Source: Acidimicrobiales bacterium
Lineage (GTDB): Bacteria > Actinomycetota > Acidimicrobiia > Acidimicrobiales > JAJPHE01
Assembly (NCBI GenBank): GCA_035653595.1
Contig: DASRBO010000190.1
Span: 5,167-69,166 of the forward strand
Direction of reading: 5' to 3'
Length of the DNA stretch: 64,000 bases
The stretch's first letter is position 1; every line of letters starts with the position of its first letter. The notes under the pieces were generated by a model. The model had not been told where the DNA came from and ran no database searches. It saw only the letters and a program-made list of their open reading frames with translations. Shown piece by piece: positions 256 to 19,223 of the stretch. Position numbers and translations under genes: made by a program.

Positions 256-1653
256 TCAGGCGCTGCCTCCGACCGGGGTGAGCTGGGCGGCGGTCGGCTC
301 GGCGCAGCAGAACCAGGCCTCGCTGAGGCGGGGCACCGGTCGCACCGGCAGGGGCGAAGGCAACGGGCGAGGTCTCCCGACGCCGGCTTCGGCCGCCGCC
401 GTCGACACCAGGGCATGCAGCTCGGCAAAGGCGGCGCCCGGCTCCGCTTCCCGCTCGGCGACGGCCGCCATGTCCTGCTGCAGGCGGTCGAGCAACGGTT
501 CGGCCGCGCTCCACGGGTAGGCGAGGGCAGCGCCGTCGTAGGGGCCGAGGCGGGGGGCCAGATCCGGGTCGCCCAGGAGCAGCGACCCCTCGGGCACCAG
601 CAGCCGGATGCTGTACTGGACCGGATCTACCGCCCCGATCAGGTCGTTGGCCACCACGAAGTCGAACAGCTCGACCATGTCGGTGACCCGCGTCCAGGGC
701 GTGAACGGCAGCAGGGAGGGTCTCACCTCCACGCCGGCCGAGCGCAGCACGGAGACGGCCTCGACCTCGTCGGCCACGGTGTGGCCCTTGTCCAGCCTGG
801 CCAGCACCTCGTCACTGGTCGACTCGAAGGCCGACACCACGAACAGCAACCCGGCACCCGCCAGCTCAGGCCAGATGTGGCGGTGGCGCAGGATGTGCTC
901 GACCTTGGTGGTGCAGTCGAAGGTGAGCCCCGGATGACGGCGGTGCACCTCGCCTATCACTCTCAGTGAGTGGTGGGGGCCATTGAGGAAGTCCGGATCG
1001 CCGAAGGTGATGTGCCGGGCACCCATCTCCACCAGCTGGTCCACGTCGGCCAGCACCGACTCCTTGGCGACGGTCCTGATGCGCCCGTCGTAGACCACCG
1101 GCACCGGGCAGTGGCGGCAGCGGTGCACGCACCCGTGGCTGGCCTCGACGTAGCCGGCGACGATCTCCTCGTCGCCCCGCAGCAGCCGGGCGTAACGGTC
1201 GAGCCCGGGCAGCAGCCGGCGCTCGGGGCGGGCGAACCTGGTCCGGCCCAGCGCCACCGCGTGCCGGGGCCGGAGGCCTCCTCCACCCGAAGAGACGAGC
1301 GACTCCACCCACTGGACCAGGGCGGGCTCGTACTCCCCGGCGATGGTCCGGTCGAACCACTCCCCCCAGGAGCCGCCGCCCGCCCCGGCGTACAGGCCGT
1401 AGGCGCAGCTGGGCAGGTCGGGGCGGCGCTCCCGCACCCGCCTGACAGCCTCGACGGCCAACCGGGTGGCCGTGTGCATCGGCACCGAGAAGGCCGCCGC
1501 CTGCGCCCAGTCGACCAGGGCGTCGTCGAGGGTCTCCACCGCCAGGTCGCAGGCCCTCACCTGGTGGCCGGCGGCGGCCAGGGCGGCGGCCGGCGAGGCC
1601 ACCTGGAGGGGCTGGTGGCCGAGCTCGTAGGTGGAGACCAGCAGCACCCTCAC
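256..1653 (-). CDS. B12-binding-domain radical SAM protein with CCAEP C-terminal tail (CUAEP/CCAEP-tail rSAM family)
   Basis: 465-aa ORF. It has an N-terminal B12-binding-like segment (MRVLLVSTYELGHQP...) and the radical SAM CxxxCxxC motif (CVHRCRHC). The C-terminus reads ...EAWFCCAEPT..., with the two Cys codons TGC TGC at 304-309 on the minus strand. Confidence 0.9.
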   Translation of the reverse strand: MRVLLVSTYELGHQPLQVASPAAALAAAGHQVRACDLAVETLDDALVDWAQAAAFSVPMHTATRLAVEAVRRVRERRPDLPSCAYGLYAGAGGGSWGEWFDRTIAGEYEPALVQWVESLVSSGGGGLRPRHAVALGRTRFARPERRLLPGLDRYARLLRGDEEIVAGYVEASHGCVHRCRHCPVPVVYDGRIRTVAKESVLADVDQLVEMGARHITFGDPDFLNGPHHSLRVIGEVHRRHPGLTFDCTTKVEHILRHRHIWPELAGAGLLFVVSAFESTSDEVLARLDKGHTVADEVEAVSVLRSAGVEVRPSLLPFTPWTRVTDMVELFDFVVANDLIGAVDPVQYSIRLLVPEGSLLLGDPDLAPRLGPYDGAALAYPWSAAEPLLDRLQQDMAAVAEREAEPGAAFAELHALVSTAAAEAGVGRPRPLPSPLPVRPVPRLSEAWFCCAEPTAAQLTPVGGSA

Positions 1654-2908: not shown

Positions 2909-3565
2909 ATGGACCCGCCAATGTCCGCTCCCGAACCCCCCGGCTTCCCCGACGCCCCCGACCGGGTCGTCGCCGTCACCGACCAGGCCCGCCTGACCGT
3001 GCTCGAGCTGAGGGCGGAGGAGTCCGACGCCGAGGCCCTCGCCCTGTGGCTGGAGGTGAACGGGTCCTCCGGCGGCGAGTACACCTACGACCTTTACTTC
3101 GAGGCGGCGGGCGACGCCCGTCCCGGCGACGTGGTGGCCGACTACGACGGGCTGGAGCTGGTGGTGCCGGCCGCCAGCGTGGACGCCCTCCGCGGGGCGA
3201 TCCTCGACGTGCGCGATGGGGGCATGGTGCTGGTGAACCCCAACCGGCCCCGCACCGGGCCCTCGGTCATGCACGAGGCCGATCTCTCCAGCGAGGTGGC
3301 CCAGGCGGTCATCCGGGTCCTCGACGAGCAGGTCAACCCGAGCATCGCCGCCCACGGCGGCATGGCCCAGCTGGTGGCGGTGGAGGAAGGGGTGGCGTAC
3401 CTGCGCCTGGGAGGCGGCTGCGTCGGCTGCGGGCTGGCCACCGTCACCCTGTCCCAGGGCATCGAGGTGGCCATCCGCGATGCGGTGCCGGCGATCACCT
3501 CGGTCGTCGACGTGACCGACCACGCCTCGGGCACCAACCCGTACTACGAGCCGTCCAAGAAGTAG
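2909..3565 (+). CDS. NfuA-like Fe-S cluster carrier (degenerate A-type N-domain + Nfu/NifU C-domain)
   Basis: ATG 2909 lies inside ORF 1631-3565 (alternative ATG 2921). The C-terminal part reads ...VNPSIAAHGGMAQLVAVEEGVAYLRLGGGCVGCG..., which is the Nfu CxxC motif. The N-domain has no Cys, as in NfuA. Confidence 0.85.
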   Translation: MDPPMSAPEPPGFPDAPDRVVAVTDQARLTVLELRAEESDAEALALWLEVNGSSGGEYTYDLYFEAAGDARPGDVVADYDGLELVVPAASVDALRGAILDVRDGGMVLVNPNRPRTGPSVMHEADLSSEVAQAVIRVLDEQVNPSIAAHGGMAQLVAVEEGVAYLRLGGGCVGCGLATVTLSQGIEVAIRDAVPAITSVVDVTDHASGTNPYYEPSKK

Positions 3566-3574
3566 CCGGCACGC

Positions 3575-4408
3575 ATGACGATCCGGGGGGTCCTCTTCGA
3601 CCACGTCGCCGTGGCGGCCGAGGACCAGCACCAGCTCTGGCCCCGCTACGTCGGCGACCTGGGCGGGCGCTGGATCGGGGGCGGCGGAACCGTCGGGTTC
3701 TTCTCCGCCCAGGTCTCCTATGCCAACGCGATGCGTCTCGAGGTGCTGGAGCCCTACCAGGTGGAGCGCAACGACTTCCTCCGGCGCTTCCTCGACCGCA
3801 ACGGCCCCGGTCCGCACCACCTGACCTTCAAGGTCCCCGACCTCGGCGCCGCCCTCGAGGAGGCCGACGGCGCCGGTTACTCACCCGTCGGCGTGGACAT
3901 GAGCGACCCCGGCTGGCAGGAGGCCTTCCTCCACCCCAAGGACGCCCCGGGCATAGTGGTCCAGCTGGCCCGGTCCAGCCACGAGGGCCAGTGGAGCTCG
4001 CCGCCGCCGGCCGAGGTCGCCACCCTCCCTACCGGCCCGAGCGCCGCTCTGATCCATGTCGCCCATGCCCTGTGCCGTCCGGCTGACGGGACCCGGCTCT
4101 TCGCCGGGCTGCTGGGAGGCGAGCAGGTGGCCGCCGGGGCCGGCTGGCTCGATCTCGACTGGCCGGGGGGCAACCGGGTGAGGCTGCTCGACGCCTCCGG
4201 CTCCGGGCCCCTGGCCGACTGGGTCGGCAGCCGGCCCGGCCGCCTTCACCACCTGGGGTTCCTGTGCGAGGAGCCAGGGACCATCGCCGGGGCCAAGCCC
4301 ACCGCGGATGACGGCCTGTGGACGGTGGAGCCGGAGGAGAACCTGGGGGTGCGACTGCTGCTCACCTCCGACCCGGACCTGTTCCAACAGGGCCGCCTCG
4401 GCTACTAG
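3575..4408 (+). CDS. VOC (glyoxalase/bleomycin-resistance/dioxygenase) family protein, two-domain
   Basis: 277-aa ORF. FDHVAVAA...LEVLEP...GPGPHHLTFKV and a second ...LHHLGFLC... module are typical paired beta-alpha-beta-beta-beta VOC repeats. Confidence 0.8.
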   Translation: MTIRGVLFDHVAVAAEDQHQLWPRYVGDLGGRWIGGGGTVGFFSAQVSYANAMRLEVLEPYQVERNDFLRRFLDRNGPGPHHLTFKVPDLGAALEEADGAGYSPVGVDMSDPGWQEAFLHPKDAPGIVVQLARSSHEGQWSSPPPAEVATLPTGPSAALIHVAHALCRPADGTRLFAGLLGGEQVAAGAGWLDLDWPGGNRVRLLDASGSGPLADWVGSRPGRLHHLGFLCEEPGTIAGAKPTADDGLWTVEPEENLGVRLLLTSDPDLFQQGRLGY

Positions 4409-4424: not shown

Positions 4425-6035
4425 ATGGCCGAGCGCCGCTCGTGGTGGGGCTGGGGGCTGGAGGGCCAGGGTCCGTCCCGCCCGCAGCAGGAGGCCATCG
4501 CCACCGGGCTGGCGGCCCGCTTCGGGCGGGAGGTGACCGTCGCCGATCCGGCCCGCCTGGAGGATCTGGAGCTTCCCCCGCCCCGGATCCAAGCACCGGA
4601 GAGCCTGGCGCCGCTGTGCTCGACCGGCACCTACGAACGGGCCGGCCACAGCTACGGCCGGTCCTACCGCGACGTGGTGCGGGGTTTCCGGGGCCAGTTC
4701 GACCACCCCCCCGACGTGGTGGCCTTCCCCGCCGACGAGGCCGAGCTGGCGTCCCTTCTGGAGTGGGCCAGCGATGCTGACGTGGCCGTCGTCCCCTACG
4801 GGGGCGGTTCGTCGGTGGTGGGCGGGGTCGAATGCCCGGCCGACGGCCACGCCGGGGTGCTCACCGTCGATCTGGGCCGCATGGACGGGCTGGTCGAGCT
4901 GGACCGCACCTCGAGGGCGGCCCGGATCCAGGCCGGCATCCTCGGTCCCGCCCTCGAGGACCGGCTGCGCCCCCACGGCCTCACCCTGCGCCACTTCCCC
5001 CAGTCCTTCGAGTTCTCCAGCCTGGGCGGCTGGCTGGCCACCCGCTCCGGCGGTCACTACGCCACCGCCCGGACCCACATCGACGACTTCGTGGAGTCCA
5101 TGCGGGTGCTCACCCCGGCCGGAGCGGTCGAGTCCCGCCGGCTGCCTGGCTCAGGGGCCGGGCCCTCACCCGACCGGCTCTTCCTCGGGTCGGAGGGCAT
5201 CCTGGGGGTGATCACCGAGGCGTGGATCCGACTGCAGGACCGCCCCCGGTTCCGCTCCTCGGCGGCGGTCCGCTTCGAGCGCTACAGCGACGCCGTGGCC
5301 GCCACCCGGGCCGTGGTCCAGGCCGGCCTCCAGCCGGCCAACTGCCGGCTGCTGGACGAGGCGGAGGCGGCCTCCTCGGCCGGCTCCGGCGGTGGGGTGA
5401 ACCTGCTGGTGCTGGGATTCGAGTCGGCCGACCATCCCGTCGGCGGCCCCATGGACCGGGCCCTCGAGATCTGCGCCGGGCATTCCGGCTCGGCACCCGA
5501 CGGGGTGCGCAGCAGCGGCCCCGAGGATGGGGGTGGCGCCCAGCGGGAAGGCTCGGTGGGCGCCTGGCGCAATGCCTTCATCCGGGCCCCCTACACCCGC
5601 GACGCCCTAGTGGCCATGGCGGTCATCGTGGAGACGTTCGAGACCGCCTGCACCTGGGACCGCTTCGCCGACCTGCACGCCGGGGTGACCCAGGCGGTGG
5701 AGAAGGCCCTGGTCGACATCTGCGGGGGCGGGCTGGTGACCTGCCGGTTCACCCACGTCTATCCCGACGGGCCCGCCCCCTACTTCAGCGTCCTCGCCCC
5801 GGGCCGTCGGGGCTCGGAGATCTCCCAGTGGGACGAGATCAAGGCGGCCGCCTCCGAGGCGGTCATGAGCAACGGTGGGACCATCACCCATCACCACGCC
5901 GTGGGCCGCGACCACCGCCCCTGGTACGACCACCAGCGCCCCGAGCTCTTCGCCGAGGCCCTGCGGGCGGCCAAGGCGGCTCTCGACCCGGCCGGGGTGA
6001 TGAACCCCGGCGTCCTGGTGGAACCCCGTGGCTGA
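4425..6035 (+). CDS. FAD-linked oxidase, alkyl-dihydroxyacetonephosphate synthase (AgpS)-like
   Basis: ATG 4425 is preceded by GAGGGGA. The N-terminus reads RSWWGWGLEG, followed by an FAD-binding PCMH segment (VVPYGGGSSVVGG). The C-terminus reads ...TITHHHAVGRDHRPWY...LDPAGVMNPGVLV, as in AGPS/mycobacterial AgpS-type proteins. Confidence 0.85.
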   Translation: MAERRSWWGWGLEGQGPSRPQQEAIATGLAARFGREVTVADPARLEDLELPPPRIQAPESLAPLCSTGTYERAGHSYGRSYRDVVRGFRGQFDHPPDVVAFPADEAELASLLEWASDADVAVVPYGGGSSVVGGVECPADGHAGVLTVDLGRMDGLVELDRTSRAARIQAGILGPALEDRLRPHGLTLRHFPQSFEFSSLGGWLATRSGGHYATARTHIDDFVESMRVLTPAGAVESRRLPGSGAGPSPDRLFLGSEGILGVITEAWIRLQDRPRFRSSAAVRFERYSDAVAATRAVVQAGLQPANCRLLDEAEAASSAGSGGGVNLLVLGFESADHPVGGPMDRALEICAGHSGSAPDGVRSSGPEDGGGAQREGSVGAWRNAFIRAPYTRDALVAMAVIVETFETACTWDRFADLHAGVTQAVEKALVDICGGGLVTCRFTHVYPDGPAPYFSVLAPGRRGSEISQWDEIKAAASEAVMSNGGTITHHHAVGRDHRPWYDHQRPELFAEALRAAKAALDPAGVMNPGVLVEPRG

Positions 6036-6543
6036 CCGGCCGACGCCGCCCCCGCTGACCAAGTGGCTGGAGCCGCTGGAGCAGAGGCTCACCTACGCCG
6101 CCGCCGTGTACACCGCCCTGGCCACCCTGGTGGTGACGGTCCCCTACCTGAGCGGCAGCCACCCCAAGCTCAAGGGGTCCCCCGCCTTGGCCCTCGGCAT
6201 CGGGCTGGGGTCCGCCGCGGTCGTGCTGGTCGGGGCCCGCCTGCGCCACCGGTTGGGAGCGGCGCTGGCCGCCGGCCTGGCCGGGGTCGCCCCCTGGGGG
6301 GGGATCCTGAGCGTGCCGGTGCTCGGGCTGTCGTTCTGGCTGCTTTTCCGCAACAGCCGCCGCATGCGGGAGGAGCGGGGGCTGGCCCCCGCCCCGGCCC
6401 GGGGGGAGCGGCCGGCGGGCTTCCGGCGGCGGCGCCCCACGGCCGAGGCCGACGACGGCAAGCGCCGTCCGCCGGCCTCCAAGCGCTACACGCCCCCCAA
6501 GGCCCCCGACAAGGGAGGCCGGGGCGGCCGTCGCCGTGGCTGA
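6028..6543 (+). CDS. Hypothetical membrane protein with basic C-terminal tail
   Basis: The GTG start overlaps the upstream stop (GTGGCTGA, 6028-6035). There are three or four hydrophobic helices followed by an R/K/P-rich tail. No recognisable family. Confidence 0.55.
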   Translation: MADRPTPPPLTKWLEPLEQRLTYAAAVYTALATLVVTVPYLSGSHPKLKGSPALALGIGLGSAAVVLVGARLRHRLGAALAAGLAGVAPWGGILSVPVLGLSFWLLFRNSRRMREERGLAPAPARGERPAGFRRRRPTAEADDGKRRPPASKRYTPPKAPDKGGRGGRRRG

Positions 6544-6575
6544 CCGGCAGGGCGGGCGTTTGCTAGTGATTAGCC

Positions 6576-8897
6576 GTGATTAGTGAGGCCCTCGAGGGCC
6601 GGCGCATCGCCGTCACCGGCGCCACCGGCTTCCTCGGCACCGCCCTGGTGGAGCGGCTGCTGCGCTGCGTCCCCGGTGCCGAGGTGGCCGTGCTCGTCCG
6701 GCCCGGCCGGCGGGGGGCGGCCGAACGGGCCCGGCGGGAGATCCTGCGCAACGACTGCTTCGACCGCCTCCGCTCCGAGCTGGGCGACCGCTTCGACGCC
6801 GAGGTCTCCCGTCGCCTGCTGGTGATGGCCGGCGACGTGGGCGAGGACGGGCTGGGCCTCGACGACGCGGGACGGGAGATCCTCGCCGGCTGCCACACGG
6901 TGGTGCACTCGGCCGCCACGGTCAGCTTCGACTCCCCCCTCGACTCGGCGGTGGAGACCAACCTGCTGGGGCCGTCGCGGGTGGCCGTCGCCATGGCCGA
7001 GGCCCGCGTTGATCCCGCCCACCTGGTGGCGGTGTCCACCGCCTACGTCGCCGGCGGAAGGCGGGGCGACGCCCGCGAGCTGCCGCTCAGCCAGACCCCC
7101 TTCGCCGTCGACGTGCCCTGGCGGGACGAGGTCACCGCCGCCCGCCGCGTGCGGGCGGATGTGGAGGCAGCCAGCCGGGCCGCCTCCGCCCTGGCCCGGT
7201 TCCACAAGCAGGCCCGGGCCGAGCTGGGCGCCGCCGGCACCCCGCTGTTGTCCGAGCGGGCCGAGCGCTTCCGCCAGGAGTGGGTCAACGACCAGCTGGC
7301 CGAGGCGGGACGGGCCCGGGCCCAGTCGCTCGGTTGGCCCGACGCCTACGCCTACACCAAGGCCCTGGGCGAGCGGGCCCTGCTGGAGACCAGGGGCGCG
7401 GTGCCGGTGACCATCGTGCGGCCCTCGATCATCGAGTCCGCCCTGGCCGAGCCCCGCCCGGGCTGGATACGCGGGTTCCGGATGGCCGAGCCGGTGATCA
7501 TCTCCTACGCCCGCGGCCTGCTGCAGTCCTTCCCCGGCGTGCCCGAGGGGGTCGTCGACGTGGTTCCCGTCGACCTGGTGGTGGCCGCCATCATCGCCGT
7601 GGCCGCCACCGGCCCCGACCCGTCGGGCTCGTCGGTGTACCAGGTGGCCTCGGGCTCGGCCAACCCCCTGCGCTACCGCAACCTGGTCGACCTGGTGCAG
7701 TCGTACTTCACCGACAGCCCCCTCTACGACGCCGAGGGCCAGCCCATCGTGGTGCCGCAGTGGTCCTTCCCCGGCCGGGGCCGGGTCCAGCGCCAGCTGG
7801 AGCGGGCCGACCGGGCCCTGTCCACCGCCGAGAAGACCGTGCGCTCGCTGCCCGTCCGAGGCCGCCAGGCCCGCTGGAGCGCCGAGGTCGAGGAGCGCCG
7901 GGTCCAGGTCGGCCGGGCCCTCGACTACGTCCGCCTGTACGGGGCCTACACCGAAACCGAGGCCCGCTTCCGGGTCGACCGGCTCCTCGAGCTGTGGCAG
8001 GCCCTGCCCGAGTCCGACCGGGCCTTCTGCTTCGACCCCCGGGTCATCGACTGGCGCCGCTACGTCCAGGAGATCCACCTGCCCTCGGTCGTGACCCACG
8101 CCCGGGTGCGGGCCACCCCCGGCCGGCGCACCGGGCCCGACCGCCACGAGCGGGGCCGGCGGGCGATCCTCAGCCCCGAGCGCCACCTGGCCGCCTTCGA
8201 CCTCGAGAACACCCTGGTGGCCTCCAACGTGGTCGAGTCCTACGCCTGGCTGGCGACCAGGCACCTGGCCGACTCCGACCGCGTCCGCTTCACCCTGCGG
8301 ACCCTGCGGGAGGCCCCGTCGCTGCTGGCCCTCGACCGGCGGGACCGGGGCGACTTCCTGCGCCACTTCTACCGCCGTTACGAGGGGGCCGACCCCGACC
8401 GGCTGCGGGAGGACGCCCCCGAGCTGTTCGCCCGGCTGCTGCTGGCCAAGTCCTTCCCCGCCGGCATCCGCCGGGTGCGGGAGCACCGCGCCCTCGGGCA
8501 CCGCACCTTGCTCATCACCGGGGCCCTCGACATCGTGGTGGAGCCGTTCCGGGCCCTCTTCGACGACATCGTCTGTGCCCGCCTGTCGGTGCGGGACGGC
8601 CGGCTCACCGGTGAGCTGGACCAGTCCCCGCCCACCGGGGAGGCCAGGGCCATGGTGATGGCCGACTACGCCGAGGCCGAGGGTCTCGACCTGGCCCAGT
8701 CGGTCGCCTACGCCGACTCGGCCAGCGACCTGCCGATGCTCGAGGCCGTCGGCCATCCGGTGGCGGTGAACCCGGAGGTAAAGCTGGCCACCATCGCCCG
8801 CAAGCGGGGCTGGCACACCGAGCAGTGGGACAAGGCTGCCGGCTACTCCGCCCCCCTCCTTCCCATCGCTCCCCGGCTGGCGGCCCGGTGGCGCTGA
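6576..8897 (+). CDS. Fatty acyl-CoA reductase (NAD_binding_4 / male-sterility type SDR) fused to a C-terminal HAD-IB-like domain
   Basis: 773 aa. The N-terminal part has IAVTGATGFLGTALVERLL, SAATVSF, YAYTKALGE and VTIVRPSII, the FAR hallmarks. The C-terminal part has LAAFDLENTLV ... LLITGALD ... YADSASDLPMLEAVGHPVAVNP, the HAD-IB motifs. Confidence 0.9.
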   Translation: MISEALEGRRIAVTGATGFLGTALVERLLRCVPGAEVAVLVRPGRRGAAERARREILRNDCFDRLRSELGDRFDAEVSRRLLVMAGDVGEDGLGLDDAGREILAGCHTVVHSAATVSFDSPLDSAVETNLLGPSRVAVAMAEARVDPAHLVAVSTAYVAGGRRGDARELPLSQTPFAVDVPWRDEVTAARRVRADVEAASRAASALARFHKQARAELGAAGTPLLSERAERFRQEWVNDQLAEAGRARAQSLGWPDAYAYTKALGERALLETRGAVPVTIVRPSIIESALAEPRPGWIRGFRMAEPVIISYARGLLQSFPGVPEGVVDVVPVDLVVAAIIAVAATGPDPSGSSVYQVASGSANPLRYRNLVDLVQSYFTDSPLYDAEGQPIVVPQWSFPGRGRVQRQLERADRALSTAEKTVRSLPVRGRQARWSAEVEERRVQVGRALDYVRLYGAYTETEARFRVDRLLELWQALPESDRAFCFDPRVIDWRRYVQEIHLPSVVTHARVRATPGRRTGPDRHERGRRAILSPERHLAAFDLENTLVASNVVESYAWLATRHLADSDRVRFTLRTLREAPSLLALDRRDRGDFLRHFYRRYEGADPDRLREDAPELFARLLLAKSFPAGIRRVREHRALGHRTLLITGALDIVVEPFRALFDDIVCARLSVRDGRLTGELDQSPPTGEARAMVMADYAEAEGLDLAQSVAYADSASDLPMLEAVGHPVAVNPEVKLATIARKRGWHTEQWDKAAGYSAPLLPIAPRLAARWR

Positions 8898-8925
8898 CGG
8901 CGGGCCCCCGAGGGGAAGCGGCCCG

Positions 8926-10134
8926 ATGAAGGCCCTGCAGTTCGACCGCTCGGCGGCCCGCTACGCCCTGGCCCGGGCGGCCGGCGAGGTGGTGGCGGGC
9001 GGGGGGGCCAGGGTCGGCCCCCTGAGACTGGTCGAGACCGAGCCACCGGCGCTGCCCGGGCCGGAGTGGCGCCGGGTGGCCCCGCTGCTGGCCGGCATCT
9101 GCGGCTCGGACCTGGCCACCGTCGACGGGCGCAGCTCCCGCTACTTCGAGCCCATCGTGAGCTTCCCGTTCGTGCCCGGCCACGAGGTGGTCGGCGAGCT
9201 GGCCGACGGTGGGCCCGACGACGGCGCCCGGGTGGTGATCGAGCCGGTGCTGGGCTGCGCCGCCCGCGCCATCGAGCCGCCGTGTCCGGGCTGCGCCTCC
9301 GGCCACACCGGTAGCTGCGAGCGCGTGGCCTTCGGGCACCTGAAGCCAGGGCTGCAGACCGGGTTCTGCTCCGACGTCGGCGGCGGGTGGTCGGCCGCCC
9401 TGGTCGCCCATCCGTCCCAGCTCCACCGGGTGCCCGACGGGATGGCCGACGAGGAGGCGGTCATGGTCGAGCCCACCGCCTGCGCTGTCCATGCCGCCCT
9501 TTCGGCCGGCCCGCTGGAGGGCAGGACCGTCGCCGTGCTCGGGGCCGGCACCCTGGGCCTCACCGTGCTGGCCGCCCTGCGCCGGTTCTGCCTGCCCGGC
9601 GCCGTCATCGCCGGGGCCAAGCACCCCGAGCAGCGCCGGCTGGCGGCCGAGCTGGGCGCCGACGAGGTGGTCAATCCCGATGGTCTGGCCCGGGCGGTCC
9701 GCCGGCGCACCCGCTCCCTCGACGTGGGGCCCCGGCTGTCCGGGGGCGCCGATGTGGTCTTCGACTGTGTCGGCAGCGCGGCCTCGCTGACCGAGGCCCT
9801 GGGCATCGTCCGGCCCCGGGGCCGGGTGGTCATGGTGGGGATGCCCGGCTCGGTCCGGGTCGACCTGACCCCGCTGTGGCACCGCGAGATCGAGCTGGTG
9901 GGTGCCTACGCCTACGGCACCGAGGTCACCGACGGCGCTGCGGTGCGCACCTTCCAGCTGGCCTTCGATCTGGTGAGGGAGGCGGGGCTGGGACGCCTGG
10001 TGAGCGCCCGCTACCCCCTCGACCGCTACACCGAGGCCCTGGCTCATGCCGGCAACGCCGGCCGCCGGGGAGCGGTGAAGGTCGTGTTCGACCTGCGGCA
10101 CGAGTCCCGCCGTCCGACATGGAGAACCGAATGA
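8926..10134 (+). CDS. Zinc-binding alcohol dehydrogenase (MDR family)
   Basis: 402 aa. Motifs seen: GICGSDL, PFVPGHEVVG, a structural-Zn-like CPGCASGHTGSC, and GAGTLGL for nucleotide binding. Confidence 0.9.
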   Translation: MKALQFDRSAARYALARAAGEVVAGGGARVGPLRLVETEPPALPGPEWRRVAPLLAGICGSDLATVDGRSSRYFEPIVSFPFVPGHEVVGELADGGPDDGARVVIEPVLGCAARAIEPPCPGCASGHTGSCERVAFGHLKPGLQTGFCSDVGGGWSAALVAHPSQLHRVPDGMADEEAVMVEPTACAVHAALSAGPLEGRTVAVLGAGTLGLTVLAALRRFCLPGAVIAGAKHPEQRRLAAELGADEVVNPDGLARAVRRRTRSLDVGPRLSGGADVVFDCVGSAASLTEALGIVRPRGRVVMVGMPGSVRVDLTPLWHREIELVGAYAYGTEVTDGAAVRTFQLAFDLVREAGLGRLVSARYPLDRYTEALAHAGNAGRRGAVKVVFDLRHESRRPTWRTE

Positions 10135-11720
10135 GCCCCAGGCCCGGATTCGTACTCGAGGTGGACCGCTCGTCGCCGCCCAGCCTCCTCTGGCACGGAG
10201 AGGGCTTCCGGCTGGAGCGACTGCCGGTGGGGACAAGAGTGGTCCACCCGCCCGAGCCGCTGGCCGCCATCGAGGAGCCCGACGAGGCCATCCGCCACGC
10301 CCTCGAGCACCCCCAGGGCGACAGTGCCCCGCTGTCGGCCCTGCTGCGGCCGGGCATGCGGCTGACCATCGCCTTCGACGACGTGTCGCTGCCGCTGCCC
10401 CCCATGCGCGCCCCCGACGTGCGCCAGCGGGTCATCGAGGCGGTGCTCGACACCGCCGCCGCCGCTGGGGTCGACGACGTGGTGCTGATGGCCGCCCTGG
10501 CCCTGCACCGCCGCATGACCGAGCCCGAGCTGCGCCACGCCCTGGGCGACCGCATCTACGACGCCTTCGCACCCCACGGCCTGCTGGTGCAGCACGACGC
10601 CGAGGACCCGTCGAACCTCGAGCACCTCGGCCAGACCGAAATGGGCGAGGACGTGGAGATAAACAAGCGGGCCGCCACCAGCGACCTGATCGTCTACGTC
10701 AACATCAACCTGGTGGCCATGGACGGGGGCCACAAGAGCGTGGCGACCGGTCTGGCCAGCTACCGCAGCCTGCGCCACCACCACAACGTCCACACCATGG
10801 TGCACTCGCGCTCGTTCATGGACCAGGAGCGCTCCGAGCTGCACTCGTCCAACTGGCGCATGGGACGCCACCTCGCCGCCAGCGGGGTGAAGGTCTTCCA
10901 GATCGAGACCACCCTCAACAACGACACGTTCCCCGACCCGTTCCGCTTCCTCTCCCGCCGCGAGTGGGAGTGGACGGCGCGGGACCGGGCCACCTATCTG
11001 GCCACCACCGCCGGGCTGGCCCGGGCACCCGATCGGGTCAAGCGGACGATCTTCCAGTCCATGCGGGCGCCGGTCGGGCTCACCAGCGTGCAGGCGGGCG
11101 AGGTGGAGGCGGTGCACAGGCTGACCACCGCCAACGTCTACCGCCAGCAGCTGGTCGAGGTGGAGGGGCAGTCCGACGTGCTGCTGATGGGCCTGCCCTA
11201 CATCTGCCCCTACAACGTCAACTCGATCATGAACCCGATCCTGGTGATGTGCCTGGGCCTCGGGTACTTCTTCAACCTCTACCGGGGCAAGCCGCTGGTG
11301 CGCCCGGGCGGCGCCCTGATCATGTCCCACCCCACCCCGTGGGCCTTCGACCCGGTGTTCCATCCCAGCTACATCGACTTCTTCGAGCAGGTGCTGGCGG
11401 AGACGACCGACCCGGCCGAGATCGAGGAGAAGTACGAGCAGTCCTTCGCCACCGACCCGTGGTACATCCACCTGTACCGCACCGGGCACGCCTACCACGG
11501 CGTCCATCCGTTCTACATGTGGTACTGGGGGGCACACGCCCTCGACCACCTGGGCCGGGTGATCATCGTGGGCGGGGACCCGGCCGCCGTGCGCCGGCTC
11601 GGCTTCAAGTCGGCCTCCACCCTCCCCGACGCCCTCGAGATGGCCGAGGACGTCGTCGGCCGGCATCCCAGCATCACCTACCTGCGCTGTCCCCCTTTGC
11701 TGATGGCCGACGTGAGATGA
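10131..11720 (+). CDS. LarA-like (lactate racemase N-terminal domain / DUF2088) protein
   Basis: The real start is inside ORF 9387-11720. ATG 10131 forms an ATGA overlap with the ADH stop (alternative ATG 10119). It has ...RLTIAFDDVSLPLPP... and ...NINLVAMDGGHKSVATGLASYRSLRHHHNVH..., which resemble LarA-family N-domain and GGxK...H segments. Confidence 0.75.
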   Translation: MSPRPGFVLEVDRSSPPSLLWHGEGFRLERLPVGTRVVHPPEPLAAIEEPDEAIRHALEHPQGDSAPLSALLRPGMRLTIAFDDVSLPLPPMRAPDVRQRVIEAVLDTAAAAGVDDVVLMAALALHRRMTEPELRHALGDRIYDAFAPHGLLVQHDAEDPSNLEHLGQTEMGEDVEINKRAATSDLIVYVNINLVAMDGGHKSVATGLASYRSLRHHHNVHTMVHSRSFMDQERSELHSSNWRMGRHLAASGVKVFQIETTLNNDTFPDPFRFLSRREWEWTARDRATYLATTAGLARAPDRVKRTIFQSMRAPVGLTSVQAGEVEAVHRLTTANVYRQQLVEVEGQSDVLLMGLPYICPYNVNSIMNPILVMCLGLGYFFNLYRGKPLVRPGGALIMSHPTPWAFDPVFHPSYIDFFEQVLAETTDPAEIEEKYEQSFATDPWYIHLYRTGHAYHGVHPFYMWYWGAHALDHLGRVIIVGGDPAAVRRLGFKSASTLPDALEMAEDVVGRHPSITYLRCPPLLMADVR

Positions 11721-12598
11721 GGCTGCCCGCCTTCCCCTGGGGGGCGCCCACCCGGCCCGGAGGCGTACCCCTGCCCCCGGTCGAGCGGGAGACCGGGGTG
11801 TACTACGACACCTCCTGGTCCCGCCGCTACGAGGCCCGCCTGGCCCGGGCCCTCCTTCTCGAGGGCGTCACCCGCCCGCTGGTCCACACCGTCATCCCCC
11901 CTCGGGTGGAGGGGCTGGACCGCATCGAGGGCTTGGAGGCACCGGCGGTGTTCGCCGCCAACCACAACAGCCACCTCGACACCCCCCTGATCCTGTCCAC
12001 CCTGCCCCGGCGCTTCCGCCACCGCACCGTGGTGGCGGGGGCGGCCGACTACTTCTTCGACACCAAATGGAAGGCGGCGGTGTGGTCCCTGACCGTGGCC
12101 GCCGTGCCCATCGAGCGCATCCGGGTGAGCCGGCGCTTCCTCGAGCTCGGCATGGGCCTGCTGGCCGACGGTTGGTCGGTGGTGATCTATCCCGAAGGGG
12201 GGCGCTCGCCCGACGGCTGGGCCCAGCCCTTCATCGCCGGGGTCGCCTACCTCGCCTACCGGGCCCGGGTCCCCCTGGTCCCGCTCCACATCGCCGGCAC
12301 GTCCGAGGCCCTGCCCAAGGGGGCCCGCCGGCTACGGCCGGGGCGCACGGCGGTCACCTTCGGGCGCCCGATGCCGCCCGACCCCGACGAGGATCCCCGC
12401 CGCCTGTCGGCCCGCCTCGAGGCCGAGGTGGCCGCCCTGGCCGACGAGCACGCCACCGACTGGTGGCAGGCCCGCCGCCGGGCCGCCGCCGGGGCCACCC
12501 CGGCCCTGTCGGGACCGGACGCCCCGGGCTGGCGGCGCTCGTGGGCCCGAACTCCGCCGAGCGCGGCGTCCCGCAGCTGGCCCCACAAGGGGCCCTGA
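11717..12598 (+). CDS. Lysophospholipid / 1-acyl-sn-glycerol-3-phosphate acyltransferase (PlsC family)
   Basis: ATG 11717 forms an ATGA overlap with the upstream stop. It carries the acyltransferase blocks ANHNSHLD (HX4D) and IYPEGGRS. Confidence 0.85.
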   Translation: MRLPAFPWGAPTRPGGVPLPPVERETGVYYDTSWSRRYEARLARALLLEGVTRPLVHTVIPPRVEGLDRIEGLEAPAVFAANHNSHLDTPLILSTLPRRFRHRTVVAGAADYFFDTKWKAAVWSLTVAAVPIERIRVSRRFLELGMGLLADGWSVVIYPEGGRSPDGWAQPFIAGVAYLAYRARVPLVPLHIAGTSEALPKGARRLRPGRTAVTFGRPMPPDPDEDPRRLSARLEAEVAALADEHATDWWQARRRAAAGATPALSGPDAPGWRRSWARTPPSAASRSWPHKGP

Positions 12599-12609
12599 GG
12601 CGAACCGGT

Positions 12610-13335
12610 CTACTCGAGGAGGCGCAGCCCGCTGGGGGCGATGGAGGGCTCGGGCGAGACCAGCTCGACCACGAACTCGGTGCGGTGGGCGGGAAAGACG
12701 TGCTCGCTGACCAGCACCACCTCCCCGTCCTGGGAGCGGGTCACCCGCTGGCACACCAGCACCGGCGAGCCCACGGGCACCCCCAGTGCCCGGGCGTCGG
12801 CGGCCGAGGCGGCGGCGGCCCCGATGGTCTGGGTGGCGCTGGCCAGGCCGACCCCGATCAGCTCGTAGAACGGGGAGCGCTCCACGTCGTCACGCGACAG
12901 CGATCCGGCCAGGCGTTCGGGGGCCCACACCGTCACCAGGGCGAAGGGGGCGCCGTCGGCCAGGTTGAGCCGGCGGACCCGCAGCACGCTCCCCGGCCCC
13001 AGCAGCTCGGCCACCGGCGCCGGCGCCTCCTGCCAGGCGAACTCGAGCACCTTGCGCCCGGGCTGGCGGCCCTGGGCGGCCATCTGGGCCTCGATGGTGC
13101 CCAGGTGTCCCAGGTCCTGGCGCACGGGGGCCACGGCGGCGAACCATCCGAAACCCTGGCGGGAGTCGATCAGGCCCTCCTCCCGCAGCACCTCGAGGGC
13201 CTTGCGGACCGTCACCCGGCTGACGCCGTAGCGTTGGGACAGCTCGGCCTCGCTGGGCAGCAGGCTTCCGGGCGTCGCCGCCCCCAGGTCCCGCCTCAGG
13301 TCGGCGGCGATGGCGCGGTAGCGGATCTCCCTCAC
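12610..13335 (-). CDS. GntR-family transcriptional regulator (HutC/UTRA subfamily)
   Basis: 241 aa with a GTG start. The winged HTH reads [31 protein letters not shown], followed by a UTRA-like C-domain. Confidence 0.9.
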
Positions 13336-16504: not shown

Positions 16505-17829
16505 CCCCGCTCCCCCCCTCCCCGACGGCCGAGGCGGCGCAGGGCCTGGAAGCTGGTGTAGTTGGCCACCACGTCGACCGGCCGGTCGGGCAGTTCCGCA
16601 GCGGTCGGGCCGCCCGCTCCGTCCTGGGACAGGCGCAGCCGGTGGGCGAGGGTCACGGCCCGGCCCAGGTCCGCCTCGGTGACATGGTCCACCCCGGCGT
16701 AACGCAGGCGCACGGCCAGGTCGCGACAGCGCTCCCCCGTCGCCACCACGGTGCGGCCGGCCAGGCGCTCGAAGGGCACGTCCCACAGCCACGACGGGTC
16801 GCGCCCGTCGGCCACCCGGGCGTTGATCGCCACCGCCAGCGGGCCGGGGGCCAGCAGGTCGAACACGGTCATCCACCCGGCCGGGTTCTTGGCCAGGATC
16901 AGGCGGGCCGCAGCCCCCTCCACCCGCACGACCCCGTAGCGGCCGGCGACCTCACCGACGGCGCCCACGGCCCTGGCCGCCTCGGCCAGGGAGACGCCCA
17001 TCTGGGCGGCGGTGACCGCCGCCATCATGGCGTTGGCCCGGTTGTGGGCCCCCGGCAGGCAGACCGACAGGGCGAACCGCTCCTCGCCATCCTCGGAGCG
17101 CCGCACCAGGTCGGCACCGTCCAGGAGCACCTCGGGCCGGGGTCGGCGCAGGCCGCAGCCGGCGGTGCACGACCACTCCCCGCCGGCCGACCCGGCGCCG
17201 GCGCCGGCGCCGGCGAAGGCGATCACCCCCTCGCAGGCGGGACAGCCGGTGGCGTCGAGGTGCCAGGCCAGCCCGCCGGCCACCCACACCACCTGAGGGG
17301 CGGTGCCTGCGGCCCAGGCGACCATGGGGTCGTCGGCGTTGGCCACCACCGTGGTGGAGGCCATGGCGGCCACGGCGGAGCGCCACCGGCCGGCCAGCAT
17401 GCGCACCTCGTTGATCCGGTCCAGCTGATCGCGGCTCAGATTGAGCAGGCAGAGGGCCCGGGGCGAGAGGGCCTGGGCGACCCGGGGCACGTAGGCCTCG
17501 TCGACCTCGAGGGCCGCCATGGCCCCCGGCCCGGCCCGGGCGAGGGCCGTCACCAGGCCCGGAGGCAGGTTGGCCCCGCCCAGGTTGGTGACCACCGGGC
17601 CGGCGGTCTCCAGGGCGGCGGCCAGCAGCCTGGTCGTGGTCGTCTTACCGTTGGTGCCGCTGACCAGGCCGGCGGGATGGCCCCTGCCCAGCGAGGCGAG
17701 GGCGCCGGGGTCGAGGGCGAGGCTGACCCGGCCCCCGATCACCGAGCCGTCGCCGGCACCGACGGACCGCGACAGCGCCGCCACCCCGGCCCCGGCTCGG
17801 CTGGCCAGCCGGGTGCGCAGGCCGCTCAA
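16501..17829 (-). CDS. murT: Lipid II isoglutaminyl synthase, Mur-ligase subunit MurT
   Basis: Trimmed to TTG 17829, which forms a TTGA overlap with the upstream stop. It has the P-loop GTNGKTTTT, a Cys-rich ribbon (CPACEG...CTAGCG) and a DUF1727-like C-terminus (DGRDPSWLWDVPFE). Confidence 0.85.
   Translation of the reverse strand: MSGLRTRLASRAGAGVAALSRSVGAGDGSVIGGRVSLALDPGALASLGRGHPAGLVSGTNGKTTTTRLLAAALETAGPVVTNLGGANLPPGLVTALARAGPGAMAALEVDEAYVPRVAQALSPRALCLLNLSRDQLDRINEVRMLAGRWRSAVAAMASTTVVANADDPMVAWAAGTAPQVVWVAGGLAWHLDATGCPACEGVIAFAGAGAGAGSAGGEWSCTAGCGLRRPRPEVLLDGADLVRRSEDGEERFALSVCLPGAHNRANAMMAAVTAAQMGVSLAEAARAVGAVGEVAGRYGVVRVEGAAARLILAKNPAGWMTVFDLLAPGPLAVAINARVADGRDPSWLWDVPFERLAGRTVVATGERCRDLAVRLRYAGVDHVTEADLGRAVTLAHRLRLSQDGAGGPTAAELPDRPVDVVANYTSFQALRRLGRRGGGERG
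17193..17216. repeat. Short tandem hexamer (CGGCGC x3 + CGGCGA) inside murT
   Basis: Read directly: cggcgccggcgccggcgccggcga. It encodes the AGAGAGAG run inside the MurT Cys-ribbon loop on the minus strand. Confidence 0.8.
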
Positions 17830-19223
17830 CCCTCGACGGGATGCCCGGGCGGGGTGGCCAGCTCGATTTCCTGCGGAGTAGGCCGGCGCCGGCGCCGGGC
17901 GGCCGGGGGCAGGAGCTCGGTGATGGCGGCCATGATCGTGGCGGTGTCGCGGTGCGGGTCCTCCAGGGCCAGGGTCACCGGTGCCCCGACGCGGATACGC
18001 ACCGTGGGCGGGTTGACCACCTGCTGGACCCGGGGGAGCCGGAGGCGGCGGGGCCACACCGCCTCGGTACCCCAAAGCCCCACCGGCACCACCGATGCCC
18101 CGGTCAGGGCGGCCAGCCGGGCCGCCCCGGTCTTTCCCGTGAGCACGGGCTCGAAGAAGGCCTTCCCCCGCGGGATGGTGCCCTGGGGCAGGATGGCGAC
18201 CAGCTCACCGGCTTCGATCGCCGAAGCCGCCTCCTGCAGCGGTTGGCTCGATCCGGTGCCCCGGTCGACCCGGATACCGCCCGCCGCCCGGGCCAGGGCG
18301 CCGACCACGGGGGCGTCGAAGACCTCCTTCTTGCCCAGGAACCGCAGCTTGCGACCGGCCTGGCCGAGGACCAGCACCCCCAGGGCCACGGGGTCGAAGT
18401 AGCTGCGGTGGTTGGACACGACGATGGCCGGGCCGTGTCGCGGGATGCGCTCCGCCCCGTCGATGTCGAAGCGGGCGAAAGGGATCAGGGCCGGCTGCGC
18501 CGTCAGCCGCACCAGATCCATGGGCTCGACGCCGAACAGCTTCGGTACTCCGGCCGGCACGTCGAGGTTGCGCACCGGCCAGCGGCGGATGGTGGCGGCA
18601 GCGAGCAGGCGGGGGTCGGGGTTGACCGCCACCGGGTGGCCGACCGCAGACAGCAGGGGCAGGTCGTAGAAGCTGTCGGAGTAGGCGTAGGAGTCCTTCA
18701 GGCTCACTCCGGCCGAGGCGGCCCACGCCCGCACCGCCGCCAGCTTGCCCCGGCCCCACACGAACTCCCCCGCCAGGGACCCGGTGTAGGCCCCGTCCCG
18801 CTCGGCGTAGCGGGTGGCGACCACGTCGTCGAAGCCCAGGCGCTCGGCCAGGGACGAGACCAGGTCGACCGGGGTGGTGGTGGCCAGGACGACCGGGCGG
18901 CCCAGGCTGCGGTGCCAGGCGATCAGGCCGCGGGCGTAGGGGGCGACCAGGGCGTCGAGCTTGGCCGCCGCCTCCTTGCCCGCCTGGCGCACGGCCTCGG
19001 CCGACCACCCCCGGGCGGCCAGGGCCGCCCCCCGGGCCAGGGCCATGGCCGGCAGCGTCTCCCCGATCAGGTCGTAGAGCCGGTACAGGGCCGATCCCAC
19101 TCCCCCGCCGCGGGCCGGCGCGATTCCGGCGGCCTCCAGTGCCTCGCCGATGAGGGGGCCGCTGGCTCCCCGCAGCACCGTCCGGTCCAGGTCGAAGAAG
19201 GCAGCGCCGGCCACGACGACCAA
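17826..19223 (-). CDS. Bifunctional HAD-IB hydrolase / 1-acyl-sn-glycerol-3-phosphate acyltransferase (Rv2483c-PlsC-like architecture)
   Basis: 465 aa. The N-terminal part has canonical HAD motifs: FFDLDRTVL, ...GRGK..., YSDSFYDLPLLSAVGHPVAVNP. The C-terminal part has acyltransferase blocks SNHRSYFD (HX4D) and ILPQGTIPRG. The start is TTG 19223 (alternative GTG 19214). Confidence 0.85.
   Translation of the reverse strand: MVVVAGAAFFDLDRTVLRGASGPLIGEALEAAGIAPARGGGVGSALYRLYDLIGETLPAMALARGAALAARGWSAEAVRQAGKEAAAKLDALVAPYARGLIAWHRSLGRPVVLATTTPVDLVSSLAERLGFDDVVATRYAERDGAYTGSLAGEFVWGRGKLAAVRAWAASAGVSLKDSYAYSDSFYDLPLLSAVGHPVAVNPDPRLLAAATIRRWPVRNLDVPAGVPKLFGVEPMDLVRLTAQPALIPFARFDIDGAERIPRHGPAIVVSNHRSYFDPVALGVLVLGQAGRKLRFLGKKEVFDAPVVGALARAAGGIRVDRGTGSSQPLQEAASAIEAGELVAILPQGTIPRGKAFFEPVLTGKTGAARLAALTGASVVPVGLWGTEAVWPRRLRLPRVQQVVNPPTVRIRVGAPVTLALEDPHRDTATIMAAITELLPPAARRRRRPTPQEIELATPPGHPVEG

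Follow-up and report, generated by a model that had tools for sequence, protein, structure and literature searches.

An elb-like gene module physically joined to agpS in an Acidimicrobiales contig is a probable ether-lipid locus

We analysed a 64,000-nt stretch of DNA from an Acidimicrobiales bacterium (assembly GCA_035653595.1, contig DASRBO010000190.1, positions 5,167 to 69,166 of the forward strand), here called the window, in which a reading of the sequence alone had proposed an aerobic ether-lipid pathway encoded by six genes at 4425-12598. Our analysis indicates that this locus is probably a compact ether-lipid module resembling the elb genes of Myxococcus xanthus and physically joined to agpS, a gene of the alkyldihydroxyacetonephosphate synthase (AGPS, EC 2.5.1.26) family. 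The locus consists of two units. Unit A is agpS (4425-6035), while unit B (6028-12598) encodes a small membrane protein, a fusion of a fatty acyl-CoA reductase (FAR) with a HAD phosphatase, a zinc-dependent alcohol dehydrogenase (Zn-ADH), a LarA homolog (LarAH) and a PlsC-type acyltransferase. As genes 3, 5 and 6 are homologous to ElbB, ElbC and ElbD, the ether-lipid interpretation is better founded than the sequence-only reading knew.

Six operon-like genes on the plus strand

The G+C content of the window is about 74% and raw lists of open reading frames (ORFs) are full of spurious frames; ORF calling was therefore guided by the G+C content at third codon positions (GC3), which is 0.93-0.97 in the called frame of each of the six genes. 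The same set of plus-strand genes is found in two independent public gene calls, JGI 3300027773 and ENA ERZ27279673, which are contigs with an AgpS protein identical to that of the window. The first gene, agpS (4425-6035), encodes a flavoprotein of 536 aa with the domains FAD_binding_4 and FAD-oxidase_C, followed by the small membrane protein (6028-6543, 171 aa), which matches no Pfam or NCBIfam family. The FAR-HAD fusion (6576-8897, 773 aa) combines NAD_binding_4, Sterile and HAD-IB domains, and the Zn-ADH (8926-10134, 402 aa) is made of ADH_N and ADH_zinc_N. The LarAH (10131-11720, 529 aa) carries Lar_N and belongs to NCBIfam NF052592, 'LarAH14/15/16', and the last gene (11717-12598, 293 aa) encodes an acyltransferase of the PlsC/LPLAT type (PF01553).

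Three of the five junctions are overlaps of 8, 4 and 4 nt, namely GTGGCTGA at 6028-6035, ATGA at 10131-10134 and ATGA at 11717-11720, exactly the overlapping start and stop codons that the sequence-only reading had quoted for six same-strand genes. The motifs it had picked out, WWGWG and THHHAVGRDH in gene 1 and HX4D (NHNSHLD) in gene 6, are likewise all present in the translations. The two other intergenic gaps measure 32 nt (6543/6576) and 28 nt (8897/8926), and no terminator-like hairpin was found in either of them, the matches of the scan lying only inside genes or on the opposite strand. The overlaps, the short gaps and the lack of terminators within them make the genes at 4425-12598 operon-like. 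A scan for sigma-70-like promoters found none, which is uninformative at 74% G+C.

The module is homologous to the elb genes

The elb cluster of M. xanthus (MIBiG BGC0000871) contains elbA and elbE, encoding NAD-epimerases, elbB, encoding a HAD protein, elbC, of unknown function, and elbD, whose product joins FAR, acyl-CoA synthetase (ACS), acyl carrier protein (ACP) and acyltransferase (AT) parts (PMC9131029). The same paper, which summarises Lorenzen et al. 2014 on the cluster, reports that M. xanthus needs elbD, and probably elbE, to make alkyl and vinyl ether lipids, and calls 'unknown' the steps that lead from a fatty acid to an alkyl ether lipid. A protein search returned MXAN_1529, a hypothetical protein of strain DK 1622 with a LarA-like N-terminal domain, in a locus that reads NAD-epimerase / HAD / Lar_N / 1470-aa ElbD-type protein / NAD-epimerase. 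With MXAN_1531 as elbA and MXAN_1527 as elbE (PMC13012113), this gene order identifies MXAN_1529 as elbC. Our literature search found no paper naming MXAN_1529 or tying LarA/DUF2088 to Elb or to ether lipids.

The order HAD - LarAH - [FAR-ACS-ACP-AT] - NAD-epimerase is that of Myxococcota, Binatia and Acidobacteriota. The locus of Anaeromyxobacter oryzae, for instance, encodes an NAD-epimerase, a HAD protein, a Lar_N protein, a protein of 1593 aa (NAD_binding_4, Sterile, AMP-binding, PP-binding and Acyltransferase domains) and an NAD-epimerase. The elb arrangement is also found in Corallococcus, Archangium and Acidobacteriota subdivision 4 (Pyrinomonadaceae, Blastocatellia), and both elb homologs and ether lipids have been reported for these myxobacterial and Acidobacteriota subdivision 4 groups.

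Four parts of the window's module find their counterparts in these proteins. The LarAH, 50% identical to MXAN_1529 (ElbC) over 523 aa, is its relative at the level of an ortholog, and the ElbC-position protein of A. oryzae also passes NF052592, with 839 bits. A. oryzae ElbB shares 37% identity with the HAD domain (2e-33), and the FAR is 38% identical to the FAR domain of ElbD, whose AT domain matches only gene 6 in the window (38%, 3.8e-16) and not the housekeeping HAD-PlsC protein at 17826-19223. Searching the window with A. oryzae ElbA and ElbE by tblastn found nothing, and Pfam found no AMP-binding or PP-binding domain in the operon.

Gene 1 encodes an AGPS-family protein

The product of gene 1 matches FAD_binding_4 (PF01565, 3.1e-31) and FAD-oxidase_C (PF02913, 1.3e-38), corresponding to PCMH-type FAD-binding and cap domains. 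Among solved structures (PDB, phmmer), the best matches are the AGPS of Dictyostelium (2uuu, 3.6e-64) and of guinea pig (4bby, 8.5e-62), and the next family, D-lactate/glycolate oxidase-like, follows at 2.6e-25, leaving AGPS a lead of about 130 bits. By alignment, R308, R441, T443, Y453 and H489-491 correspond to R419, R566, T568, Y578 and H615-617 of the guinea-pig enzyme, in which H616 and H617 are active-site residues (PMC13019191), and whose mutants Y578F and R419H are the crystal structures 4bca and 4bc7. These residues, and the N-terminal W8-G9-W10-G11, are invariant in 32 homologs of gene 1 with 64-79% identity.

The predicted fold points in the same direction. For the AlphaFold2 model of gene 1 (pLDDT 77, pTM 0.80), the best 37 PDB matches in Foldseek, aligned over about 565 columns, all belong to AGPS; 36 have a TM score of 0.74-0.83 and one has 0.68, and D-lactate dehydrogenase (D-LDH) comes next (TMq 0.65). 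Sequence scores, catalytic residues and predicted fold together establish that gene 1 is a genuine member of the AGPS family, for which the exchange of an acyl for an alkyl group is the predicted reaction. The sequence-only reading had noticed AGPS-like ends and had asked for an active-site alignment to AGPS versus oxidases of the GlcD and D-LDH types; the aligned residues favour AGPS, as do the phmmer gap and the Foldseek ranking. A GlcD/D-lactate dehydrogenase was considered as a candidate identity of gene 1 and is ruled out by score gap, residues and fold; its matches to GlcD-type NCBIfam models are weak and far below the cut-off.

The family of gene 1 is very large, with at least 8000 proteins at E <= 1e-20, and JGI often already names its members 'alkyldihydroxyacetonephosphate synthase'. 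The closest homologs come from Acidimicrobiales metagenome-assembled genomes (MAGs). Rv3107c of Mycobacterium tuberculosis is called agpS from annotation alone, and a literature search found no functional study of any actinobacterial AgpS, Rv3107c included.

The LarA homolog is a predicted nickel-pincer enzyme

The LarAH scores 898 bits against NF052592 (cut-off 740) and matches Lar_N (PF09861) at 2e-38. Its closest solved structures are the LarA-like proteins 9q2u (1e-36) and 9q3j (3.3e-26), which have a single catalytic histidine. Residues K202, H217/H218, D83/D84 and H126 align to K195, H221, D73 and H115 of LarA_Sp, that is, to the Lys anchoring the nickel-pincer nucleotide (NPN), the Ni-binding His, the ribose Asp and the first catalytic His. 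The second catalytic His of LarA is needed for two-way racemisation. In its place (His174 of Lactobacillus plantarum LarA), the LarAH has an Asn aligned to Asn185 of LarA_Sp, as in the 9q2u subfamily; this is either N191, which is invariant, or N193, replaced by T, D or C in 8 of the 242 loci. LarAH groups 14 and 15 have been reported to lack the second catalytic His.

D83, D84, H126, R127, N191, K202, H217 and H218 are invariant in all 242 loci with a module or elb context (about 47-100% identity), some of which were collected by means of peptide patterns containing K202 or H217/218. Genes for biosynthesis of the cofactor are found beside the module as well. In Actinomadura sp. GC306, larC, larB and larE directly adjoin the PlsC gene of the module (locus L195, 10520-13396, minus strand), LarC and LarE being above the NCBIfam equivalog cut-offs and LarB just below (173.8 vs 175 bits). 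By tblastn, seven loci from four lineages have homologs of LarB/C/E, or of LarE and LarC, encoded beside the module, at differing positions: larC-larB-larE are adjacent in L195, L205, L209 and L186, which include Actinomadura and Thermomonospora, and LarE and LarC are encoded near the module in three other lineages (L169, L187 and L196). The invariant ligands and the recurrence of larB/C/E next to the module both argue for NPN dependence, and the LarAH looks like a working NPN enzyme with a single catalytic His.

The wider LarAH family comprises 2469 representatives at E <= 1e-3; of those that are full-length, roughly half have lost catalytic His, NPN Lys and Ni His. One of them, P0123 (family representatives P0121-P0270), is 58% identical to the LarAH of the window yet degenerate, and such LarAH14-16-like representatives may be pseudoenzyme paralogs. 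A LarAH search of a plasmid collection gave no match. The LarAH14 of Frankia showed no activity with any of seven small 2-hydroxyacids (PMC7583248). The full module is present in Frankia alni (L214), and a lipid-linked substrate would explain this inactivity.

Reductase, phosphatase, dehydrogenase and acyltransferase

Gene 3 is composed of an N-terminal FAR part (about 6576-8135) and a C-terminal HAD-IB phosphatase (about 8190-8897). Its Pfam matches are NAD_binding_4 (PF07993, 1.1e-54), HAD (3.6e-28) and Sterile (PF03015), the last below its cut-off (29.2 vs 35.4 bits), and HAD-IB (TIGR01490) is above cut-off. The best solved FAR match is the fatty acyl-CoA reductase 7eoz (1.8e-63, residues 2-511), in keeping with the assignment made at first sight, and the FAR motifs GxxGxxG and YxxxK, as well as the nucleophile Asp of the HAD domain, are conserved across loci. 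The N-terminal part of gene 3 is thus predicted to be an alcohol-forming fatty acyl-CoA/ACP reductase.

The closest characterised relatives of the Zn-ADH are L-idonate 5-dehydrogenase, threonine 3-dehydrogenase, ketose reductase and sorbitol/xylitol dehydrogenase, that is, secondary-alcohol/polyol dehydrogenases and not fatty-aldehyde reductases. Gene 4 is therefore a candidate C2 keto/hydroxyl oxidoreductase, which could stand in for ElbA/ElbE or act as an acyl/alkyl-dihydroxyacetone phosphate (DHAP) reductase. Gene 6 had been taken for an HX4D glycerolipid acyltransferase, and it matches PF01553 (9.4e-17) and the PlsC structure 5kym (1e-10), with the motifs NHNSHLD and YPEGGRS; the H and D of HX4D are invariant across loci.

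The module is conserved across phyla and agpS is a local addition

Three sets of loci were compared: 80 centred on AgpS (Actinomycetota, Myxococcota, Binatia and Dormibacterota), 80 centred on close LarAH homologs (Acidimicrobiia) and 77 centred on diverse LarAH homologs, which were found with an alignment of distant LarAH representatives. Each set covers at most 80 of the matches listed, the sets have no assembly in common, and neighbours of agpS were found by ORF clustering. In the 80 Acidimicrobiia loci, LarAH is accompanied by Zn-ADH in 78, PlsC in 78, HAD in 73 and FAR in 69 (LarAH itself 80), the shortfalls being mostly at contig ends, and the order FAR-HAD / Zn-ADH / LarAH / PlsC is kept in nearly all of them. 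The 77 diverse loci show the same partners (LarAH 77, HAD 69, FAR 64, PlsC 53, Zn-ADH 48). The same module occurs in Thermoleophilia, Rubrobacteria, Frankia alni, Actinomadura, Thermomonospora and Dormibacterota, in the same order in most, and in rearranged form in Chloroflexota.

The neighbourhood of agpS is different. Around the 80 AgpS loci, FAR, PlsC and LarAH are not recurrent neighbours, so that an operon centred on AGPS is not general: the FAR...PlsC block is present in 2 loci (L001, L037), and in a third (L024) a FAR starts about 10 kb off. The synteny check called for by the sequence-only reading gives linkage in 2/80, 1/80 and 0/77 loci of the three sets, and its idea of an AGPS-centred operon as a conserved unit is not borne out. 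The recurrent neighbours of agpS are genes for short-chain dehydrogenases/reductases (SDR, 22/80 loci) and TetR regulators (12/80). The SDR is FabG-like and lies about 1 kb downstream of agpS, mostly in proteobacterial/Binatia-type MAGs, and could be a bacterial acyl/alkyl-DHAP reductase.

Where the two are linked, 0-10 kb separate agpS from the module and the spacers vary (the window, L001, L318 with the AgpS protein P0002, the contig of P0019, L037, L086 and L024), and AgpS identity across linked loci is 61-79%. In L001 (AgpS 76%) agpS is adjacent to the module; the locus of P0002 (79%) has the same order with a 188-aa gene between agpS and FAR-HAD; that of P0019 (70%) has a 2.8-kb spacer with MFS and TetR genes. 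The agpS gene is a lineage-specific addition, whose linkage with the module is confined to one Acidimicrobiales clade. This joining is an independent guilt-by-association, which suggests that the actinobacterial AgpS family and the module are both related to ether lipids.

The small membrane protein has about 2-3 hydrophobic segments and an Arg/Pro/Lys-rich tail, and in L318 its position is occupied by the 188-aa gene. It is weakly similar (30% identity, E 8e-5, a common ...KRYTP... tail) to a 238-aa membrane protein of an Acidimicrobiaceae locus (L109), encoded upstream of FAR-HAD where agpS is absent. Since this weakly similar protein precedes FAR-HAD in the absence of agpS, gene 2 goes with the FAR-HAD module and not with agpS. 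A 15-nt exact direct repeat, CCGTGGCTGACCGGC, flanks the gene 2 ORF at 6026-6040 and 6534-6548, the first copy holding the stop codon of agpS and the second that of gene 2. The repeat is only weakly above chance, as the 8.4-kb region has ten repeated 14-mers vs 2.3 expected from codon shuffling.

A proposed route and its alternatives

We infer all substrates, the order of the steps and the participation of AgpS and the module in one pathway. In this scheme, the FAR would reduce acyl-CoA or acyl-ACP from the general pool to a fatty aldehyde or alcohol, and the acyltransferase would attach an acyl chain to a backbone of glycerol-phosphate or DHAP. As the AGPS mechanism illustrates, an ether bond can form only on a 2-keto backbone. 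The ether bond would then be made at C1 of a 2-keto (DHAP-type) intermediate, here by AgpS swapping acyl for alkyl, while redox chemistry between keto and hydroxyl at C2 would be carried out by the polyol-type Zn-ADH, by the nickel-pincer LarAH, or by both. With LarA-type chemistry, the LarAH would park the hydride of the C2-OH on the nickel-pincer cofactor and then return it. Finally, the HAD-IB domain would remove the phosphate to give an alkyl(acyl)glycerol. What points to a cooperation between AgpS and the module is their operon packing in one clade. As agpS is not linked in most carriers of the module or of elb, the module probably forms the ether bond by a route of its own, for which LarAH/ElbC is the obvious candidate catalyst.

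The aerobic ether-lipid pathway of the sequence-only reading therefore stands in part. Its AGPS-family enzyme, its FAR and its acyltransferase are retained, with elb homology now added, while AgpS falls outside the conserved unit. Its statement that every chemical role can be assigned was too strong, since the LarA homolog had been given no role, the role of the Zn-ADH was a guess, and a GNPAT-type specificity is unreadable from sequence.

Several observations weigh against an ether-lipid module joined to agpS. No AgpS is encoded within about 8-10 kb of LarAH in 79 of the 80 close loci (the exception being L086) or in any of the 77 diverse ones, and P0013, a close relative (AgpS 71%), is unlinked to the module. 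The module is without ACS-ACP and without genes of the ElbA/E type and may therefore work by a chemistry other than that of elb, and 50% identity to ElbC indicates homology, not identical function. In the fused form, motif I of the HAD domain is D-x-E, not D-x-D. No larB/C/E gene was found in the window, either by tblastn or among the ORFs scanned with Pfam, which leave out some at 24-38 kb and beyond 58 kb. A literature search on ether lipids in Acidimicrobiia, Rubrobacter and Thermoleophilia found nothing relevant. In M. xanthus, PMC9131029 reports no test of elbC and ascribes the elbB phenotype to polarity.

The FAR is the clearest enzyme of the cluster, and FARs of actinobacteria and Marinobacter serve wax-ester synthesis. 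The locus could then serve fatty-alcohol, wax-ester or ester-only neutral-lipid metabolism, with no ether bond and with AgpS as a mere neighbour, an option that the sequence-only reading had kept in view. The lack of the ACS-ACP part of ElbD and the usually unlinked position of AgpS fit this option. Nevertheless, no wax synthase (WS/DGAT) gene was found in the operon, and neither a nickel-pincer enzyme nor a polyol dehydrogenase has a role in wax-ester synthesis. FAR, HAD phosphatase, LPLAT and ElbC homolog are kept together across phyla, mirroring a validated ether-lipid cluster, and agpS repeatedly stayed near the module in this clade. We regard the wax-ester option as weakened, and unlikely.

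An unusual backbone without ether bond, with AgpS acting separately, appears slightly less likely still. The LarAH could be a 2-epimerase of glycerol-phosphate or of a lyso-lipid, producing C2-inverted glycerolipids, or a racemase of 2-hydroxyacyl thioesters that would be converted with the FAR into long-chain 1,2-diol lipids. In fact, characterised LarA enzymes are C2 racemases or epimerases of 2-hydroxy compounds (PMC7583248, PMC11770544), phosphorylated polyol-like ligands have been proposed for the single-His subfamily (PMC12611868), a FAR acting on a 2-hydroxyacyl substrate would yield a 1,2-diol, and the module occurs in Rubrobacteria and Chloroflexota. On the other hand, genetics connects the homologous elb genes with alkyl and vinyl ether lipids and not with diols (PMC9131029), no 2-hydroxylase gene was found in the operon, and stereo-inversion is compatible with ether-lipid synthesis and not an alternative to it. 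Catabolism of a small 2-hydroxyacid, with the LarAH as its racemase and gene 1 as a D-2-hydroxyacid dehydrogenase of the COG0277 FAD oxidases, is very improbable. Several LarAH groups have COG0277 dehydrogenases among their most frequent neighbours (PMC7583248), and the weak GlcD-type matches of gene 1, all far below cut-off, could be read in this sense. Against this, the residues and fold of gene 1 are AGPS-specific and its match to AGPS structures exceeds that to GlcD/D-LDH structures by about 130 bits, the pairing of LarAH with a FAD oxidase is absent from more than 150 other LarAH loci, the invariant partners of LarAH are lipid enzymes, and the inactivity of the Frankia LarAH14 on seven 2-hydroxyacids (PMC7583248) speaks against it too.

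Returning to the ether-lipid module, we tentatively propose, at odds well short of even, that ElbC/LarAH14-16 is the NPN enzyme of the key Elb step, a hidden-redox reaction at C2 of a glycerol-phosphate lipid giving a 2-keto species or a stereo-inversion. If true, aerobic ether-lipid synthesis would depend on nickel and larBCE in numerous phyla of soils and sediments (Myxococcota, Acidobacteriota subdivision 4, Binatota, Actinomycetota, Dormibacterota and Chloroflexota), and Actinomycetota would be unrecognised sources of alkylglycerol biomarkers. The placement of ElbC in the LarA family, with fully conserved nickel-pincer ligands, makes the mechanism of the Elb ether bond testable. Moreover, as the module is widespread in Actinomycetota, Dormibacterota and Chloroflexota, abundant soil groups could make non-isoprenoid alkylglycerol biomarkers.

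Neighbouring genes in the window

Directly upstream of agpS, a Glyoxalase_4/VOC protein resembling methylmalonyl-CoA epimerase is encoded at 3575-4408 on the plus strand (277 aa; PF13669; TIGR03081 weak and below cut-off). A VOC homolog precedes FAR-HAD in 16 of the 80 Acidimicrobiia loci and agpS in L318 and L319, and membership of this protein in the module is uncertain. Downstream of the operon lies a convergent gene for a GntR/UTRA regulator (12610-13335, minus strand; Pfam GntR and UTRA), a possible candidate regulator of the operon; a GntR-aconitase arrangement likewise follows the module in L161, L162 and L318.

The sequence-only reading had also pointed to two other lipid genes nearby, and both are real. 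The CDP-alcohol phosphatidyltransferase (motif DWVDGWIAR) was placed correctly at 1-218 in that reading, which gave no strand for it; it is on the minus strand and runs off the left edge, with only its N-terminal part inside the window. The second HAD/PlsC is a minus-strand HAD-IB + PlsC fusion at 17826-19223 (noted together with 20910-22469, also minus strand), apparently of the housekeeping actinobacterial type. The repeated pairing of a HAD-IB phosphatase with an LPLAT acyltransferase echoes the pairing of ElbB with the AT domain of ElbD.

At 256-1653 (minus strand), a B12-binding radical-SAM protein matches the NCBIfam 'CUAEP/CCAEP-tail radical SAM (seleno)protein' with 543 bits (cut-off 500); no CUAEP/CCAEP selenocysteine tail was found, the C-terminus being ...GGSA*. 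Its gene adjoins those of an ATP-grasp ligase (1664-2890, minus) and a NifU-domain protein (2909-3565, plus). At 39799-42984 (minus), a 1061-aa ORF with MFS_1 and two ABC_tran domains is either an unusual fusion or a stop-to-stop merger of two genes.

Comparison with known systems

Among LarA-like proteins, LarA_Sp and LarA_Bw (9q2u, 9q3k, 9q3j; PMC12611868) share with the LarAH of the window the NPN Lys, the Ni His, a single catalytic His and the Asn substitute. Identity to them is low and the LarAH belongs to another family, NF052592. Their genes lie among glycolysis/carbohydrate genes (PMC12611868), whereas the context of the LarAH is made of lipid genes.

Compared with elb, the HAD domain corresponds to ElbB, the LarAH to ElbC, the FAR to the N-terminal domain of ElbD and PlsC to its C-terminal AT domain. 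The architecture differs: in the window the FAR is fused to the HAD phosphatase and the acyltransferase is a separate gene, whereas elb has a single FAR-ACS-ACP-AT protein, ElbD. Furthermore, a small membrane protein is added, and the Zn-ADH fills the slot of the NAD-epimerase-family ElbA/ElbE; the myxobacterial/acidobacterial form of elb lacks a Zn-ADH and has two genes of the NAD-epimerase family. Actinomycetota, Dormibacterota and Chloroflexota are not named as elb carriers in the literature found. As the locus has neither an ElbD in one polypeptide with its ACS-ACP part nor ElbA/E, it is not the elb operon proper.

The second system to be compared is the AGPS route, known from the eukaryotic FAR/GNPAT/AGPS/reductase pathway and from the MXAN_1676-1675-1674 operon of M. 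xanthus, which encodes AGPS, a FAR-GNPAT protein ('FARAT') and an NAD-epimerase (PMC13012113, PMC9131029). MXAN_1676 (agps) adds a minor share of the ether lipids of M. xanthus (PMC9131029), and a preprint (10.64898/2026.06.23.733905) reports MAGs that carry both agps and elbD. Like this route, the locus combines an AGPS gene with a FAR, an HX4D acyltransferase and a dehydrogenase, and the catalytic residues and fold of AGPS are conserved in its AgpS. Unlike it, the FAR is fused to a phosphatase, not to an acyltransferase, and the dehydrogenase is of the medium-chain (MDR) type, not of the SDR type; the AgpS subfamily of the window is mostly standalone or beside an SDR gene (22/80), its link with a FAR being that of one Acidimicrobiales clade. 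In conclusion, the locus resembles both elb and agps, the two known aerobic bacterial ether-lipid systems, and is a member of neither operon as defined.

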